Source: a virus (lineage: Duplodnaviria > Caudoviricetes). From it: a stretch of 64,000 bases of DNA. Location of the stretch: IMG/VR virus record IMGVR_UViG_3300008954_000001; one strand, 5' to 3'. Positions 2,462 to 43,708 of the stretch are shown here, in pieces; positions within the stretch are counted from its first letter, which is position 1, and each line of letters opens with the position of its first letter. The notes beneath the pieces were generated by a model, which worked only from the letters and a program-made list of their open reading frames with translations, was not told the origin of the DNA and searched no databases. The translations under genes were made by a program, and so were the position numbers.

Positions 2462-2746
2462 ATGGAAGAAGTAGAGCTTAAAACCATTACCAAAGACCGC
2501 CAACCCGCCCTGATCGTGGACTTTTCACAAGTCCAATCGGAGAGACCAACTCGCTATGTGTTGGGCTTTTACAAAGGCTGGACAGGCTCTACCAAAGAGT
2601 TTGGTGGGCAAGAGTACAATGACGGCTTCGATGCTGGTGTAGCGGTTCGAGAGGGCCGTCAAGAGATGCCCTCATGGGCGTTTCGACCAGAGGACCAGTT
2701 TGGAGACACGATCTTCGAGCATATCGAAGATCAGTCAGTCTCGTAA
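2462..2746 (+). CDS. Hypothetical protein
   Basis: GGGAGGA RBS, 94 aa. Confidence 0.6.
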   Translation: MEEVELKTITKDRQPALIVDFSQVQSERPTRYVLGFYKGWTGSTKEFGGQEYNDGFDAGVAVREGRQEMPSWAFRPEDQFGDTIFEHIEDQSVS

Positions 2747-13949: not shown

Positions 13950-16367
13950 TTAACAGCCCCAGCGTTTGATTTCAGCTTTGAGGGTTGCTTGAAGTTTCTT
14001 GTTCAGGTTGTCCCCGAAGACCAACAGTAAGACTTCTTCCATGCGGTTCGCAAAATGAAAAGTCATCTCATCTTTGATCTCCTGTGGGATCTCTTCCGTG
14101 TCCTTTTCATTCCATGCGGGCATAACGATTTCCTGAATCCCCGCCCTGTGTGCCGCCAAGACCTTTTCTTTGATTCCACCTACGGGAAGTACAGCACCAC
14201 GGAGCGTTGCCTCTCCCGTCATGGCAATGTCATGTCGCACAGGAATGTCTAAAAGCAAAGATAGAATGGCCGTCATCATGGTCACACCAGCACTCGGACC
14301 ATCTTTCGGCACCGCCCCACTGGGAACATGAACATGAAAATCTGTGTCGTTGAAGGATTCTTTTGTAACCTCAAGTTTCGGAGCTATGCTCCAAACCCAA
14401 CTGGTCGCCACCCCTACGGACTCTTTCATCACATCGCCTAAAGAACCAGATAGCTTCATGTTCCCCTTGCCGTGATGCTTGGTCGCTTCAATGAACAGGA
14501 TGTCCCCACCCGCTGCGGTCCACGCCAATCCACAAACAACACCGGGAACAGCCGTGCGCTGTTTGATTTCGTTGTGGTACTTCTCAGGCCCTCGGATCTC
14601 CCGCACCTTTTCGGGGGTGATAACCCAAGGTTCTCGATCTTCGGGTTCGAGGTCACCGTCCTTTCGACGCTCGGCTACGCCTCTGGCGATGCGGCGGCAA
14701 ATGGCAGCGATTTCTCGTTTTAGGGATCGAACACCCGCTTCTCGTGTGTAGTCCTCGATGATCTTTCGGATGGCATCGTCTCCGAACACAACAACTTCAT
14801 CATCAAGACCGTGCTCTTCAATATTCTGCGGGAGAGAAAAACCTCTGGCGATTTTGAGCTTGTCTTCGGGGGTGTAGCCCGGAATGTGGATTACCTCCAT
14901 ACGGTCATGCAAAGGACTGGGAATAGTATCCGCCCGATTTGCGGTAGCGATGAAAAGGATCTTGCTCAAATCGTATTCAACATCGAGATAATGATCGAGA
15001 AATTCGTTGTTCTGTTCAGGGTCGAGAACCTCAAGTAACGCCGAAGCGGGGTCGCCTCGATGATCGCTGACTAACTTATCGATCTCATCAAGAACGAGTA
15101 CGGGGTTGATTGTTCCCGCTTTCTTCATCCCCTTGATGATCCGACCGGGCATCGACCCAATGTATGTCTTGCGGTGACCTCGAATTTCAGCTTCGTCTCT
15201 CACCCCGCCAAGGGAAATGCGAGCCAACTCCCTACCTGTTGCACGAGCCACAGATTTCGCAAGAGAGGTTTTACCTACTCCTGGGGGGCCTACCAAACAA
15301 AGGATTGGTCCCTTCATGTCTTTTTTGAGCATCCGAACAGACAAGTATTCGAGGATGCGATCTTTGACCTTCTTTAGGCCGTAGTGGTCTTCGTCAAAAA
15401 TCTTCTGCGATTCTTCAATGTCGATTTCTTCCCCGGTTTCTTTTGCCCACGGGATCGACACCATCCAATCTAAATAGGTCTGTGAGACGGTGTACTCGGA
15501 ACTCTGCGGATTCATCTTAACCATGCGACGGAACTCTTTGAGACAGAGTTTCCTCACATCGTCGGGCATGTCCATCTCGGTCAGCTTCCGCTTCAACTCA
15601 TCGAATTCGTCCTCATCGTCTCCTTCAACACCAAGCGTATCCAGTTCTTTTCGGATTGCCTTTAGTTGCTCTCGGAGCATGTATTCTTTTTGTGTCTTGT
15701 CGATGCCTTCCCGAACAGTCTTTTCAATGCGGTTCATCATTTCGGCCCCCTCCAACTCTCGCTGGAGGGCTTCAATGACGTAATCCATTCGGGCTTCTTG
15801 ATTTAGGATCTCCAACACAACCTGCTTATCTTCCAGCTTGGTCAGCAGATTGTGAGCCAAGAGGTCAGATAGGGTTCCTGGGGAAACCACGCTTTCGATA
15901 ACGAAAAAGGCATCTTTCGGAATATCGGGTGTTCGAGAGATATACTGTTTTGCTAAGTGGTGGAGTGTGTTCACTTTAGGCATCACTGACTCTTTGTCAG
16001 CGAGTTCTTCTTGTACTACCGTACATTCGGCCCGAAGGATTCCATCAGTATCCAACCATTCCGTAACTCGGCAGCGGGCGATCCCTTGTAGGACAACGGC
16101 GATCTTATTCTTTTGAACGACACGAGTTACACGAACTATGGTGCCTACTTCATACAGGTCTTTGGGGGCAGGATCGTCTAAATCGGGATCACGTTGGGCA
16201 ATAACGGCCAGTAAGCCATTTCGTTTTGCTTCCTTGATCGCAGCGATAGACTTTTGCCTCCCCACATTGATCGGTGTGGAAAGGTTCGGATAAAGAACCG
16301 TATTTCGCACCGCCACGATGGGTAGCTCTAACACGTCTGGGAGCTTTACTTCGGAACCGTCACTCAT
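13950..16367 (-). CDS. lon: ATP-dependent Lon protease
   Basis: Lon N-domain, [22 protein letters not shown] catalytic Ser motif, GGIKEK. Confidence 0.97.
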
Positions 16368-17170: not shown

Positions 17171-18757
17171 CTAAGTAGTCTGAATGATGGCGGTCTCGGC
17201 AGTAATAAGGGTGGAAGCAACTGAAATAGCTGCGGAAATGACGCATCGTGCCATCTTTGCGGAGTCCACAATGGGGGAGCCTTCCAGCAAGTTTCGCACT
17301 TCGCAGGTAACGGGATCGAAGCCTTCAAAGGACGGTATATCCGCATCCTTCGTATGGAGTTTAGCCACCTCTCCGTGGGTTCCTCCCGATTCGGCTAATT
17401 TCATAAAGGGCTGTCTTAGGGCATTGGCTACGATTTTCCAGCCGTGCCGCCCATTTGCTTCCGCCTCAAGGATATCTCCAAGAAGCAACAGGCCGTTGCC
17501 CGCTCCTGGAACAACCCCTTCTTCTAAAGCACCTCGGATAGCTCCAAGGGAGTCCTCAATCCGAGCACGGCGTTCTTTCATTACCGCTTCTGTAATCCCA
17601 CCCACTCGAAGGATGATCAAACCACCAGACAAGCCAGCGGCTTGTTCGTTTAGGCGGTCGGCATCGTAGTCAGAGGTGGAGGAAGATGCTTGCGCTTTGA
17701 TCTCACGGACCCGCTGAGAAATCGTCTCGGCGGCTTCGGGGAAAGACTCAAGCGTTGTAACCTTTTGAGTGACGAGTGCCTTATGAACACTCCCGAACCA
17801 TTCGGCATCAAAGCTACCCCGATGATCGAAACCTTGCTTGGGATCAATGAGCGTGGCTCCCGAAACCGCCGCTAAATTCTGGAGCCACTCCTCTTGCCAG
17901 CGGCCCGTGCCGGGAACTTTGACGGCACAAGAATGTACGATCCCTTTCTTATTGTTCACCACCATCGTTTGAAGGGCTTCCCCTTCAATGAAAGGGGCGA
18001 ACAGTAACAGATGATTATCGGGCCATTGACTGGCTTCCTCCAAGATCGCTTGAACATCAGCCACCGTTTGAAGCCCCGTGCTGACCACAGCCACCAAAGG
18101 AGCTTTAAGGTCTCGATCAACCCCATTGTTCGTGAAGTATTCGCTGGCCCAACCAGATGGCAGTTCCATGCCGTCCTTGGTTTCGATTTCAAGACCAAGG
18201 GTCACACCGTCTTCAACCGAAACTGTGCCTTCTGTGCCCGCCATCATGCAGGCTTTCGCCAACGCTTCCGCCACCTCTTGATCCCCGTTCGAGGCGATCA
18301 GGGCTACGCTTTCCACTAAATCTTGCGACTTGATTGGGATGGCTAACTCCGCAACCAAGGCTACAGCCATCTCGGAGGCTTCCTTCATCTCACGAGAAAG
18401 AGCCACGGGGTCGAAGCCCGCAATCGCAAGTTTCTGGCCTTCCCACAAGGCTTGGTAAGCCACAATCGCTGTCGTAGTTGTACCATCCCCCGCCATCTGC
18501 TCTACTTTCAGACAGGCTTCCTTAATCATAGCGGCACCAAGGCCCGTTAATCCTGGCCCTGGCTGGACTTCTCTGGATACAGTGACCCCATCGGAAGTCG
18601 CTTGAATATGGTTGAAGGCTTTATCCAAAAGGACGATTCCACCTTTAGGGCCAAAGGTACATCCGATGGCCTTAGCCGCAATTCCAGCACCGTTCAGGAT
18701 ACCCTTGCGAGCATTTGTCCCTGAAACGACTCGAATAGGCTTTTTGTCTTTGGCCAT
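17171..18757 (-). CDS. groEL: Divergent GroEL-like chaperonin
   Basis: TFGPKG, TSDGVTV, AGDGTTT and GVVPGAG motifs; no GGM tail. Confidence 0.9.
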   Translation of the reverse strand: MAKDKKPIRVVSGTNARKGILNGAGIAAKAIGCTFGPKGGIVLLDKAFNHIQATSDGVTVSREVQPGPGLTGLGAAMIKEACLKVEQMAGDGTTTTAIVAYQALWEGQKLAIAGFDPVALSREMKEASEMAVALVAELAIPIKSQDLVESVALIASNGDQEVAEALAKACMMAGTEGTVSVEDGVTLGLEIETKDGMELPSGWASEYFTNNGVDRDLKAPLVAVVSTGLQTVADVQAILEEASQWPDNHLLLFAPFIEGEALQTMVVNNKKGIVHSCAVKVPGTGRWQEEWLQNLAAVSGATLIDPKQGFDHRGSFDAEWFGSVHKALVTQKVTTLESFPEAAETISQRVREIKAQASSSTSDYDADRLNEQAAGLSGGLIILRVGGITEAVMKERRARIEDSLGAIRGALEEGVVPGAGNGLLLLGDILEAEANGRHGWKIVANALRQPFMKLAESGGTHGEVAKLHTKDADIPSFEGFDPVTCEVRNLLEGSPIVDSAKMARCVISAAISVASTLITAETAIIQTT

Positions 18758-33802: not shown

Positions 33803-33888
33803 TGGTAGGGATGGGGGGACTCGAACCCCCACGAGCAAAGCTCGGCAGATTTTGAATCTACTGCGTCTACCTATTCCGCCACATCCCC
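33803..33888 (-). tRNA. tRNA-Leu(CAA)
   Basis: GGGGATGTGGCGGAATAGGTAGACGC...GTAGA-TTCAAAA-TCTGC, long V arm, GGTTCGAGTCC, encoded CCA. Confidence 0.95.
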
Positions 33889-34293: not shown

Positions 34294-34397
34294 TATCGCT
34301 CCTGTCTAAAGTAAAGGGTGTCGGAAACCTCACGGTTGGAGGTCAGGTGGATGATCCTCGTAACAAGCAGTGAGGCTCCGACATAGTTTAGTAGTGC

Positions 34398-34470
34398 CTG
34401 GGGCGGGTGGAGTCGAACCACCAACCTTGGGCGTAACAGGCCCCTGCGCTGCCAATTGCGCTACACCCCA
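34398..34470 (-). tRNA. tRNA-Asn(GTT), CCA not encoded
   Basis: TGGGGTG/CGCCCCA acceptor stem, loop CT-GTT-AC, GGTGG-TTCGACT-CCACC T arm, discriminator G. Confidence 0.9.
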
Positions 34471-34485
34471 AGCACAGAGAGGTCA

Positions 34486-34830: not shown

Positions 34831-34906
34831 TGGTGGGCCGTCAGGGACTTGAACCCTGAACCTACGGATTAAAAGTCCGGTGCTCTACCTGTTGAGCTAA
34901 CGGCCC
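34831..34906 (-). tRNA. tRNA-Lys(TTT)
   Basis: 76 nt, GGGCCGT/ACGGCCC acceptor stem, loop CT-TTT-AA, CCA end. Confidence 0.95.
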
Positions 34907-34916
34907 GTGGCTGGAG

Positions 34917-35013
34917 TGGTAGGGGCGGTGGGACTCGAACCCACGACCTTGCGTTTATCAGACGCTAATACGAGGTATAAGCTCGCTGCTCTAACCAACT
35001 GAGCTACGCCCCC
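34917..35013 (-). tRNA. Atypical 97-nt tRNA-Ile(TAT) with a second, GAT-bearing anticodon-like arm
   Basis: GGGGGCG TA GCTC AGTTGGTTA GAGC A GCGAG-CTTATAC-CTCGT ATTA GCGT-CTGATAA-ACGC A AGGTC GTGGG-TTCGAGT-CCCAC CGCCCCT A CCA. Confidence 0.9.
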
Positions 35014-35016
35014 GAA

Positions 35017-35358
35017 TTAGTCTATTCGGGTAGTGGACGCTAACTCTGAGAAGCCTTCTGGATACCGCTGTTTGAGTTTGTTGATGTTGTTTTCAGCGAT
35101 GGTGTTGAGATCAAGCCCCATGGCGGTAGCCATACATGCCACGTACCAAAGGACGTCCCCGATTTCTTTCTCAAGGTATTCGGGGGAAAGCTCGTGTCCG
35201 TGAAAGATGGCTTTCTTAACGTGTTCGATGACTTCGCCGCTCTCGCCAGCCAACCCTAAACACATATTCGTGATCTGATCGTTGCTCTCTCGGTCGGTCG
35301 GCATCGTTCGTGCCGCCAACGCCTGATACTCTGCAAGGTTCATTCTAAATTCCATCAT
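35017..35358 (-). CDS. MazG-like nucleotide pyrophosphohydrolase
   Basis: GLAGESGEV, EIGDVLWY, NINKLKQRYP. Confidence 0.9.
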   Translation of the reverse strand: MMEFRMNLAEYQALAARTMPTDRESNDQITNMCLGLAGESGEVIEHVKKAIFHGHELSPEYLEKEIGDVLWYVACMATAMGLDLNTIAENNINKLKQRYPEGFSELASTTRID

Positions 35359-42442: not shown

Positions 42443-43708
42443 TTAGAAGCCCTCCACAAGGTCTTCGTCATCTTCAAGGTCTGCTGCGCTGATAACGCCA
42501 CCCTTCATGTACGGATCGATAACCCGTGTCGCTTCCATGCGAGTCTCCTCGTCAGGAAGGCCGTCAATCCATGACCGAGCCGAGTCCTGAAGCAAACGAT
42601 CCGTCTTAGCGTTGGGTCGCCACTTCAACTGTGCTTCGCAAACGGAGGCCCAGTTACACACATCTCGGTGACTGAACTCCATGTAAAGCTCGCCCTTGTC
42701 GATACAGCTACGGAGAGCCTTCGTACATGCCCCGATGGTATCGAGAGCGTCAGGGTGCTTGCCGAACAAGACAGGGAACTTGGAGCGCATCACTTCAACC
42801 TCATCCTTCCACGACATTCCGTGAAAGATGACCTTCGTGTTGAAGCGGTTCATGATCGAGCTATCGATAGCCCGTGCCGAGATACAGCGTCCCGTGGTGT
42901 CTCCACCACCTTGACTGTTAGCGGTAGCCACGAACTGCGTTCCCGGTACGACCGTTACAGCCTCACCGTCTGGCGACATGACACGACCCTCAATCGAGTC
43001 GAGCATCAAGCGCAAGGTTTCGATCTGCGCCTTCGTAGCACGGTCAGCGTCCGAGAGAAGGACAATGTACGGACGAACCGTTCCATCAGCCGTAACATAG
43101 CCCTCGGTGAGAGCCTTCCAAAGCTGGCCGTACTCCCAAAAGGTCTGGACATTGCCATCCTCATCGGGAGCGAAGCTGCGAGTGTAAAGGTAGGATTCGA
43201 GATCCATTCCCGGAGCGATGGTGATCATCAGCGCAGGGCGACGAAGCATCGCACTGAACGCATGGATGAAAGCATCCTTACCCGTACCGGGGGTTCCGCT
43301 GATCCACTCATGGAAACGGGAAGCCGTGTACAGGGCCGCACGAGAAATGTCCTTGCCGAGCGTACCGTACTTAGGAAGGCGGTAGTTGGCTGGCATTGGG
43401 AGACACGCACTTGCAGGTACATCGTGCCACACATCAAGGTCGAGTCCAGCGAAGGCTACGGACAGTTCGTCCAAATCCTTGCCAGCCCTACGGGTGACCT
43501 TAGGTTGGGTGGCCGACTCGATCTCCAGCAAGAGGTTCGAGATAACGGGCTTGCCCTTGTGAGCAACCTGATACTCAGCCACAGACATATTGTGGGCCTC
43601 GGTCAGGTGGTCGGCAAGGCTTAGATCCTTGTGACCGCAAATGGCACAGGTAATGTTCGCTGCGTCGATTTGCTTTTGGGTCAGGTTTTCGAGTTTCATT
43701 TTTGACAT
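42443..43708 (-). CDS. MoxR/CbbQ/CobS-like AAA+ ATPase with an N-terminal zinc finger
   Basis: CAIC...HLTEAH; Walker A GTPGTGKD; atypical Walker B LLSDADRA; FVATAN; MNRF. Confidence 0.85.
   Translation of the reverse strand: MSKMKLENLTQKQIDAANITCAICGHKDLSLADHLTEAHNMSVAEYQVAHKGKPVISNLLLEIESATQPKVTRRAGKDLDELSVAFAGLDLDVWHDVPASACLPMPANYRLPKYGTLGKDISRAALYTASRFHEWISGTPGTGKDAFIHAFSAMLRRPALMITIAPGMDLESYLYTRSFAPDEDGNVQTFWEYGQLWKALTEGYVTADGTVRPYIVLLSDADRATKAQIETLRLMLDSIEGRVMSPDGEAVTVVPGTQFVATANSQGGGDTTGRCISARAIDSSIMNRFNTKVIFHGMSWKDEVEVMRSKFPVLFGKHPDALDTIGACTKALRSCIDKGELYMEFSHRDVCNWASVCEAQLKWRPNAKTDRLLQDSARSWIDGLPDEETRMEATRVIDPYMKGGVISAADLEDDEDLVEGF

Follow-up and report, generated by a model that had tools for sequence, protein, structure and literature searches.

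Within the window, the whole 64,000-nt stretch of phage DNA analysed here, ARAGORN called a minus-strand tRNA-Ile(tat) of 97 nt at exactly 34917-35013. Rfam RF00005 matched 34920-35013 over the full model (1-71) with 64.3 bits and an E value of 1e-11, at a gathering score of 29, and the alignment shows an insertion of about 20 nt placed right behind the anticodon stem. The gene comprises, from the 5' end of the tRNA to its 3' end:

34917..35013, minus strand: whole tRNA-Ile gene, 97 nt (ARAGORN, Rfam RF00005, sequence)
Minus strand: acceptor stem GGGGGCG / CGCCCCU, 7 bp (sequence read as RNA)
Minus strand: UA between the acceptor 5' strand and the D arm (sequence)
Minus strand: D arm GCUC-AGUUGGUUA-GAGC, then A26 (sequence)
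34970..34986, minus strand: arm 1, the canonical anticodon arm, GCGAG-CUUAUAC-CUCGU (Infernal alignment to the anticodon arm of the model)
34977-34979, minus strand: anticodon UAU of arm 1 (sequence)
Minus strand: A-U, two nucleotides between arm 1 and arm 2 (sequence)
34949..34967, minus strand: arm 2, the accessory hairpin, in which the loop CUGAUAA is closed by the 4-bp stem GCGU/ACGC, below which lie an A.A mismatch and a U:A pair (sequence, covariation)
34951-34965, minus strand: core of arm 2, GCGU-CUGAUAA-ACGC (sequence)
34957-34959, minus strand: GAU triplet of arm 2 (loop positions 3-5)
34945..34948, minus strand: GGUC, class-I type remainder of the variable loop 5' of the T stem (sequence and 137-sequence alignment, columns 75-78)
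34928..34944, minus strand: T arm GUGGG-UUCGAGU-CCCAC (Infernal alignment, covariation)
34920, minus strand: discriminator A73 (sequence)
34917-34919, minus strand: encoded CCA (sequence)

A tRNA is defined by a 7-bp acceptor, D, anticodon and T arms, U8, A14, G18-G19, a GTTCRA T loop and a score above gathering; the gene at 34917-35013 scores above gathering, is called by ARAGORN and has stems that covary across 137 relatives. For the two-armed family, the accessory hairpin was defined by a 4-bp core and a 7-nt loop with GAU at positions 3-5, lying directly 3' of the anticodon stem and 3-4 nt before the T stem, and both this hairpin and the canonical arm are present in the gene. The arm-1 loop CUUAUAC (about 34974-34980) fits the family pattern YUUAUAN, with U33 and A37. 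The arm-2 loop CUGAUAA is a perfect anticodon loop of the same form as in genuine tRNA-Ile(GAU), a form found in a minority of the family. A first-pass annotation, made from the sequence, had listed a UAU loop with C38 and G29-C41, a GAU loop with A37, A38 and C29-G41 (in its numbering), AGGUC, A73 and CCA, and had stated that 77 nt remain after deletion of either 20-nt arm; all of these parts were recovered, and the length is correct.

The tRNA-Ile gene stands in a cluster of four minus-strand tRNAs, all called by ARAGORN, with a further gene directly upstream:

34831..34906, minus strand: tRNA-Lys(UUU), 10 nt downstream of the tRNA-Ile on the same strand (ARAGORN, Rfam)
34396-34471, minus strand: tRNA-Asn(GUU) (ARAGORN)
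33803-33888, minus strand: tRNA-Leu(CAA) (ARAGORN)
35017..35358, minus strand: MazG-family gene, adjoining the tRNA cluster on its upstream side (Pfam PF03819, E 3.8e-14)

The Asn-Lys-Ile neighbourhood of this cluster (Leu(CAA), Asn(GUU), Lys(UUU), Ile(UAU)) was also found in bacterial tRNA arrays, and no plain tRNA-Ile(GAU) was called by ARAGORN within the 64-kb window. Elsewhere, PHROG matches pointed to a GroEL-like chaperonin (17171-18757) and two AAA/CobS-CobT-like proteins (13950-16367 and 42443-43708), all on the minus strand, and the window also encodes a helicase, a DNA methyltransferase and an endolysin. Chaperonin and CobS/CobT-like genes are typical of large marine phages, and the window belongs to a large phage known from marine metagenomes. 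The segment 33700-35400 was present in 11 sequencing runs, all of them DNA metagenomes and mostly marine, and a near match to the window was not found among deposited phages. A count of AUA in the phage genes, as suggested by the first-pass annotation, gave 9% of the Ile codons or 4.5 per 1000 in 69 ORFs; the codon is thus rare but used, and no enrichment was seen.

A first scan for relatives required the loop CUGAUAA and gave about 19 real tRNAs among 31 matches. When the scan was anchored in the T arm only, the phage Ile-UAU genes comprised 20 plain genes, about 14 with an insert in the anticodon loop (intron type) and seven with a hairpin after the anticodon stem, and all seven of the latter showed GAU. 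With the loop left free and the flanks fixed, GAU was detected at loop positions 3-5 in 65 of 65 real tRNAs from viral contigs, the other loop positions being variable, and in 87 of 88 real tRNAs when one genome per prokaryote species was searched, the remaining one having GAC. Hairpin-free scans, in which C25-A26, the UAU loop and the T loop were the sole prescribed elements besides a fixed spacing, led to a GAU hairpin in 66 of the 68 newly fetched viral tRNAs with a closed UAU arm at a spacing of 33 and in 41 of 47 new ones at a spacing of 34, and even a subfamily with very different hairpin flanks still shows GAU. The GAU-less remainder consisted of genes with a rewired D arm, two genes with a 6-nt GAGAC loop, one Leu/Ser-like class II tRNA and one intron type. 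Altogether, 257 distinct long Ile-UAU genes were called by ARAGORN among the collected loci, 248 of them with a GAU hairpin. Relatives without GAU are L260:307-399 from Pyrinomonadaceae (accessory loop CGGACCA, hence GAC), L517 and L549 (5-bp hairpin and 6-nt loop GAGACG or GAGACA) and those of phages Semele and 3-521.

Among the other matches, four UAU tRNA-like sequences, L384 (-, match from 176), L427 (+, 263), L505 (+, 1918) and L551 (+, 7825), do not have the D arm in its usual place; they combine good acceptor, anticodon and T arms with extra sequence 3' of the anticodon arm and fit the class with the rewired D arm. L548 (+, match from 9345), a viral contig, encodes a class II tRNA with a UAU anticodon, a Leu/Ser-like D arm and no GAU loop, whose long, GC-rich variable arm marks it as a different kind of long-armed UAU tRNA.

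Single-sequence MFE folding did not return the cloverleaf for several members, and covariation was therefore relied on instead. Across 137 distinct aligned relatives, pairing in the arm-2 helix amounted to 98%, three of the five pairs show compensatory changes, and none of 500 shuffles reached the observed covariation. All five pairs of the arm-1 stem covary as well, and double changes were detected at 21 of the 26 pairs of the acceptor, D and T stems and both arm stems together. The core stem of arm 2 measured 4 bp in 66 of 67 new relatives, its 29:41-like pair was C:G in 119/137, and A73 was kept in at least 90% of the aligned sequences. The first-pass annotation had made its reading depend on conservation of the second loop, which holds for the triplet in 248 of the 257 genes and is partly broken in one lineage, three Lactobacillus phages showing GAA, GAC and GAU. 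Both the accessory stem and its GAU triplet are under selection, and the gene at 34917-35013 is almost certainly a real tRNA with a selected GAU hairpin.

In cultured viruses the two-armed gene was found in about 40 records of Vibrio Thalassavirus (T5-like) phages and in Vibrio phage henriette, where the annotation says just tRNA-Ile, and in three Lactobacillus Herelleviridae phages. A homolog is also present in Vibrio phage Achelous (NC_055794, 76428-76520). The accessory loops of the latter (UAGAAAA, CGGACAG and CAGAUGG) have kept only G-A and the stem still covaries; Lactobacillaceae phages are the only lineage with a drifting triplet. Bacterial copies lie inside arrays of 20-35 tRNA genes, mostly in metagenome-assembled genomes of Pyrinomonadaceae and usually in the order Asn, Lys, Ile(GAU), Ile(UAU), Gln. 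Two query sequences did not find a homolog on plasmids. A full-text search of openly accessible papers did not find a description of the architecture; the two-armed tRNA-Ile(UAU)+GAU represents a large, apparently undescribed family of five-arm tRNAs, the genes of which are annotated merely as tRNA-Ile or overlooked entirely.

Other unusual tRNA genes were observed in bacterial and phage arrays. The tRNA-Leu genes in the bacterial arrays L206-L296 are mostly just 73-79 nt long and are thus without the long variable arm that usually marks leucine tRNAs; a short tRNA-Leu has likewise been reported from a mycobacterial array (PMC6582537). The Pyrinomonadaceae array L275 contains at 2608-2703 (-) a 96-nt tRNA with anticodon CAU and an extra hairpin, the loop of which, CUUGUAA, is a perfect threonine-type (UGU) anticodon loop, and this gene may be a second case of an anticodon-like accessory arm. 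In phage arrays, tRNA-Cys(GCA)-like genes with an insert of about 75 nt just 3' of the anticodon were found at L024:8668-8818, L345:334-481 and L333:1484-1636 (Rfam tRNA at 42-44 bits over about 150 nt), and a related array holds an insert-free counterpart (L315:7583-7653).

The two loops differ in what has been conserved. U33 and A37 are present in the UAU loop of 256/257 relatives (>99%), as expected for an arm that is read by the ribosome. In the accessory loop a 33-like U was found in 30 of 248 genes (12%) and a 37-like purine in 48 (19%), with the 37-like adenine absent from about 84%; constant are G-A-U and the pyrimidine of position 1, and position 7 is mostly A. As little but GAU is kept, arm 2 looks like a mere triplet display. 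The hairpin is associated exclusively with UAU tRNAs among the matches listed by an anticodon-free scan, in which all GAU hairpins located within a tRNA belonged to UAU tRNAs and the rest was coding sequence. Conversely, 116 of the 118 distinct Ile-GAU tRNAs in the collected loci are plain, and the only long one has a UAU accessory loop. As an intramolecular pairing partner for GAU, AUC in the T loop was considered and rejected, being unconserved in the 137-sequence alignment.

Bacterial carriers were analysed for the two enzymes that matter for AUA-reading tRNA-Ile. TilS was detected above the curated cut-off in five of five carrier genomes, and the IleRS of all four carriers examined ends in C-x-R-C-W, aligning residue by residue with R888-C889-W890 of the S. 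aureus enzyme (1FFY). Members of the family are found in cells that have a Trp-type IleRS and TilS. For E. coli IleRS, kcat/Km was 360-fold lower for UAU than for LAU, an effect relieved by W905R (PMC3575796), and B. subtilis IleRS, with Arg at the stacking site, charges a UAU tRNA well (PMC3919564). tRNA-Ile(TAT) genes despite Trp and TilS have been noted as a puzzle in Cyanothece PCC 7424 and Ferrimonas balearica (PMC3575796). A search of 401 Bacilli genomes for a link between plain UAU genes and Arg-type IleRS yielded three plain Ile-UAU genes and not a single two-armed gene; the IleRS of these three genomes has Trp in G254, Trp plus a second IleRS in G063 and Arg in G138. The two full-length IleRS of G063 are encoded at C1:1640666-1643122 and C1:2712184-2714619 (934 and 1049 aa), and the second looks like an IleRS2-type paralog. 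With TilS in all five carriers, the two-armed tRNA is an addition to the TilS route, and its use as a replacement for TilS was rejected. The proposal of the first-pass annotation, that one arm recruits IleRS and the other decodes AUA without TilS, has therefore to be divided: a decoding arm and an arm with isoleucine identity agree with the comparative data (U33 and A37 in 256/257 UAU loops; hairpin on UAU tRNAs only, among the matches listed), whereas the dispensability of TilS does not agree with the five of five tested genomes that encode it.

Relatives with the arms in reversed order were found at L315:7932-8029 (+) (identical to L335), L345:682-778 (-) and L333:32-127 (-), with CUGAUAA in the canonical and CUUAUAC in the accessory arm. 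These genes match the Rfam tRNA model at 57-60 bits and two of them, in L315 and L345, are missed by ARAGORN; the set comprises three distinct genes and comes from scans that required both loop sequences. The forward-order gene L024:9300-9395 (+), which scores in the same 57-60-bit range, agrees with those of L315 and L345 in its acceptor, its 7-8-nt inter-arm spacer and its 3' junction, and forward and swapped forms are two to four point mutations apart. The L024 array reads Lys, Lys, two-armed gene, plain Ile(GAU), Tyr, and the syntenic L315 array reads Lys, Lys, swapped gene, Tyr, with no plain Ile(GAU). This comparison suggests that the two arms may be positionally interchangeable in the L024/L315/L345 scaffold, which would be predicted by a model with arm exchange and not by a pure handle. 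As far as can be told, arm-swapped relatives are new.

For the function of arm 2, we consider the hairpin as a putative isoleucine identity handle for IleRS, a reading that we regard as evenly balanced between true and false. Arm 1 with UAU, U33 and A37 would decode the rare codon AUA, and arm 2, a hairpin of fixed size, would display GAU, the anticodon of the major tRNA-Ile. A Trp-type bacterial IleRS would handle the UAU anticodon poorly and could read the GAU of arm 2 together with A73 as isoleucine identity, either by docking on the side arm or after an exchange of the equal-length arms under the D stem. A mobile element might in this way deliver an AUA decoder needing neither TilS nor a specialised IleRS. 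The GAU triplet, the 29:41-like C:G pair in 119/137 arm-2 stems and A73 in at least 90% of the relatives are indirect signs of such a handle. C29-G41 is a minor determinant of E. coli IleRS, and synthetases do bind anticodon-arm mimics outside tRNA, as at the thrS operator (PMC9976931). The drifting loop in Lactobacillaceae phages would fit a handle that is not needed, as the IleRS of L. casei has Arg at the wobble-stacking site (PMC3575796). Against the handle, t6A is a strong determinant for bacterial-type IleRS (PMC9976931), and with the 37-like A missing in about 84% of the accessory loops t6A would be absent and the mimic incomplete. Plain UAU tRNAs in phages (20) and in Trp-type Bacilli indicate that a handle is not obligatory, and GAU is already canonical in L315, L345 and L333, so that a handle would be unnecessary there unless the arms exchange position. 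As carriers keep TilS, a selective benefit is also not obvious. The relatives without GAU (L260, L517, L549 and those of phages Semele and 3-521) likewise count against the handle. Moreover, a side arm at the 43/44 junction is not at the normal anticodon position of the monomeric IleRS.

For synthetases that read the anticodon, the identity of a tRNA and its decoding are normally locked together, and for this reason bacteria need lysidine (TilS) for an AUA-reading tRNA-Ile. In the two-armed tRNA the triplet for IleRS (GAU, in the accessory arm) could be separate from the triplet for the ribosome (UAU), and the equal-length arms could exchange, as suggested by the natural swapped variants (L024 versus L315/L345). 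This would be a portable uncoupling of identity from decoding, which we put forward tentatively, with doubt somewhat outweighing belief. In the perfect-loop form, as at 34917-35013, a single tRNA might present two anticodons. We see a real chance that this tRNA-Ile for AUA reveals a new principle, with identity set apart from decoding. If true, the AUA problem would have a third solution, next to the modification of C34 and the mutation of IleRS, and one portable into any host by mobile elements; a side-arm identity triplet would explain the puzzle of 2013 about tRNA-Ile(TAT) in Trp-type, TilS-positive bacteria (PMC3575796), and it would offer genetic-code engineering a ready scaffold in which charging is independent of the anticodon.

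Alternatively, both hairpins could be true anticodon arms, either of which may stack under the D stem, so that AUA would be read via UAU and AUC/AUU via GAU; recognition of the GAU conformer by IleRS would then be a by-product or a second benefit. We regard this as unlikely, even though CUGAUAA in the gene at 34917-35013 has the perfect form of an anticodon loop, arm 2 together with the 3' half aligns to part of a Streptomyces-phage tRNA-Ile(GAU) with 87-89% identity, and each arm offers about six stacked layers and a 7-nt loop. The existence of the same scaffold in both orders (UAU then GAU in L024, GAU then UAU in L315/L345) would also fit, as would a plain Ile(GAU) beside the two-armed gene of L024 that is absent from the syntenic L315 array and lacking in the 64-kb window. 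However, the swapped genes are only three distinct ones from scans requiring both loop sequences, and accessory loops are without U33 in 88% and without a purine 37 in 81% of the cases, features that are near-universal for decoding. In addition, 47 of 71 bacterial arrays have a plain Ile(GAU) no more than 3 kb away, and in viral loci its proximity is independent of the decoding fitness of the accessory loop (5/14 vs 8/20), giving no signal there that perfect accessory loops replace the plain gene.

The unfaithful anticodon loop combined with a strongly selected triplet also means that the reader of GAU need not be IleRS. Phage tRNA clusters are often discussed as counter-measures against host tRNA nucleases, and arm 2 could be a handle or decoy for another partner, such as an enzyme modifying U34 or A37, a phage protein, a processing enzyme or an anticodon nuclease directed at tRNA-Ile(GAU). 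No enzyme or nuclease with such a recognition of GAU is known to us, and we consider this explanation doubtful. In its favour, U34 must somehow be kept off AUG; on E. coli ribosomes this codon is misread by the tRNA-Ile(UAU) of M. mobile (PMC3575796). A decoy could be located on other tRNAs just as well, yet the tie to UAU is exclusive among the matches listed, and the stable upkeep in chromosomal tRNA arrays of bacteria, not in phages alone, also argues against another partner. The idea of a nuclease decoy, raised by the first-pass annotation, gained nothing in its support and leaves the exclusive tie to UAU unexplained. Finally, arm 2 could have arisen by duplication of an anticodon arm and persist as a neutral relic, or could serve structure only, with GAU kept by descent. 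A tandem duplication of the anticodon arm of tRNA-Ile(GAU) followed by G34 to U would be a simple origin, and the Lactobacillus-phage lineage tolerates GAA and GAC. This is very improbable for an old family in which 21 of 26 pairs show double changes and subfamily flanks differ, yet GAU is kept in 248/257 with the neighbouring loop positions scrambled.

The two-armed tRNA can be set beside several known systems. Long-armed Ile(UAU) tRNAs have been published, and the first-pass annotation had allowed for a merely partial novelty; these tRNAs are, however, different molecules. The allo-tRNA(UAU) (Mukai et al. 2017, PMC5389517) and the nematode nev-tRNA-Ile(UAU) (PMC3333845) share UAU and a long extra arm with the two-armed gene. 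Allo-tRNAs have 8/4 or 9/3 acceptor/T stems and tRNA-Sec-like D arms, are charged with Ser or Ala and are read by SerRS (PMC5389517); the nev-tRNAs, of eukaryotic origin, receive Leu (PMC3333845). The two-armed gene has 7/5 stems (7-bp acceptor, 5-bp T stem), A73, a class-I type GGUC remnant, a 4-bp extra stem and a 7-nt GAU loop. From class II tRNAs (Leu, Ser, Tyr; long variable arm with a 3-5-nt loop) it differs by the UAU anticodon, the 7-nt extra loop and the GGUC remnant. Intron-containing tRNA-Ile(UAU) genes of eukaryotes and viruses have a similar length and the same anticodon and were picked up by the same scans. In those genes the anticodon loop itself contains the insert, which pairs with the anticodon, whereas in the two-armed gene the stem closes around a 7-nt loop and the insert follows 3' of position 43; no Rfam intron match was obtained for the gene at 34917-35013. 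Eleven viral-contig tRNA-Ile(UAU) genes (L033, L035, L044, L048, L051, L052, L055, L056, L058, L060 and L064) carry an anticodon-loop insert of 15-20 nt that is able to pair with the anticodon, and from this eukaryote-type layout the contigs are probably from viruses of eukaryotes.

Published bacterial tRNA arrays represent the same genomic setting as the arrays of 20-35 genes that bear the two-armed gene. An expressed tRNA-Ile(TAT) has been reported from mycobacterial arrays, and an extra arm is not described in the searchable text of the tRNA-array papers. The M. mobile tRNA-Ile(UAU) (Taniguchi et al. 2013, PMC3575796) and the tRNA-Ile1 G34U of a B. subtilis tilS suppressor (PMC3919564) resemble the two-armed gene in using UAU to read AUA without lysidine, and they face the same poor recognition of U34 by ordinary IleRS. 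These are plain class-I tRNAs of 76-77 nt, in contrast to the 97 nt with a 20-nt extra GAU hairpin found here, and their solution lies on the side of the enzyme, where the Trp stacking on base 34 is replaced by Arg or Lys. A tilS-less host with such a basic residue was not found among the bacterial carriers (Trp in 4/4, TilS in 5/5). The closest likeness to the proposed role of arm 2 is found in the E. coli thrS operator and the yeast AspRS mRNA, where a hairpin loop with the cognate triplet is read by the synthetase and a swap of the triplet switches the enzyme (PMC9976931). Those mimics are regulatory mRNA elements and are not charged, whereas the mimic in arm 2 would sit in a tRNA that carries a separate anticodon for decoding.
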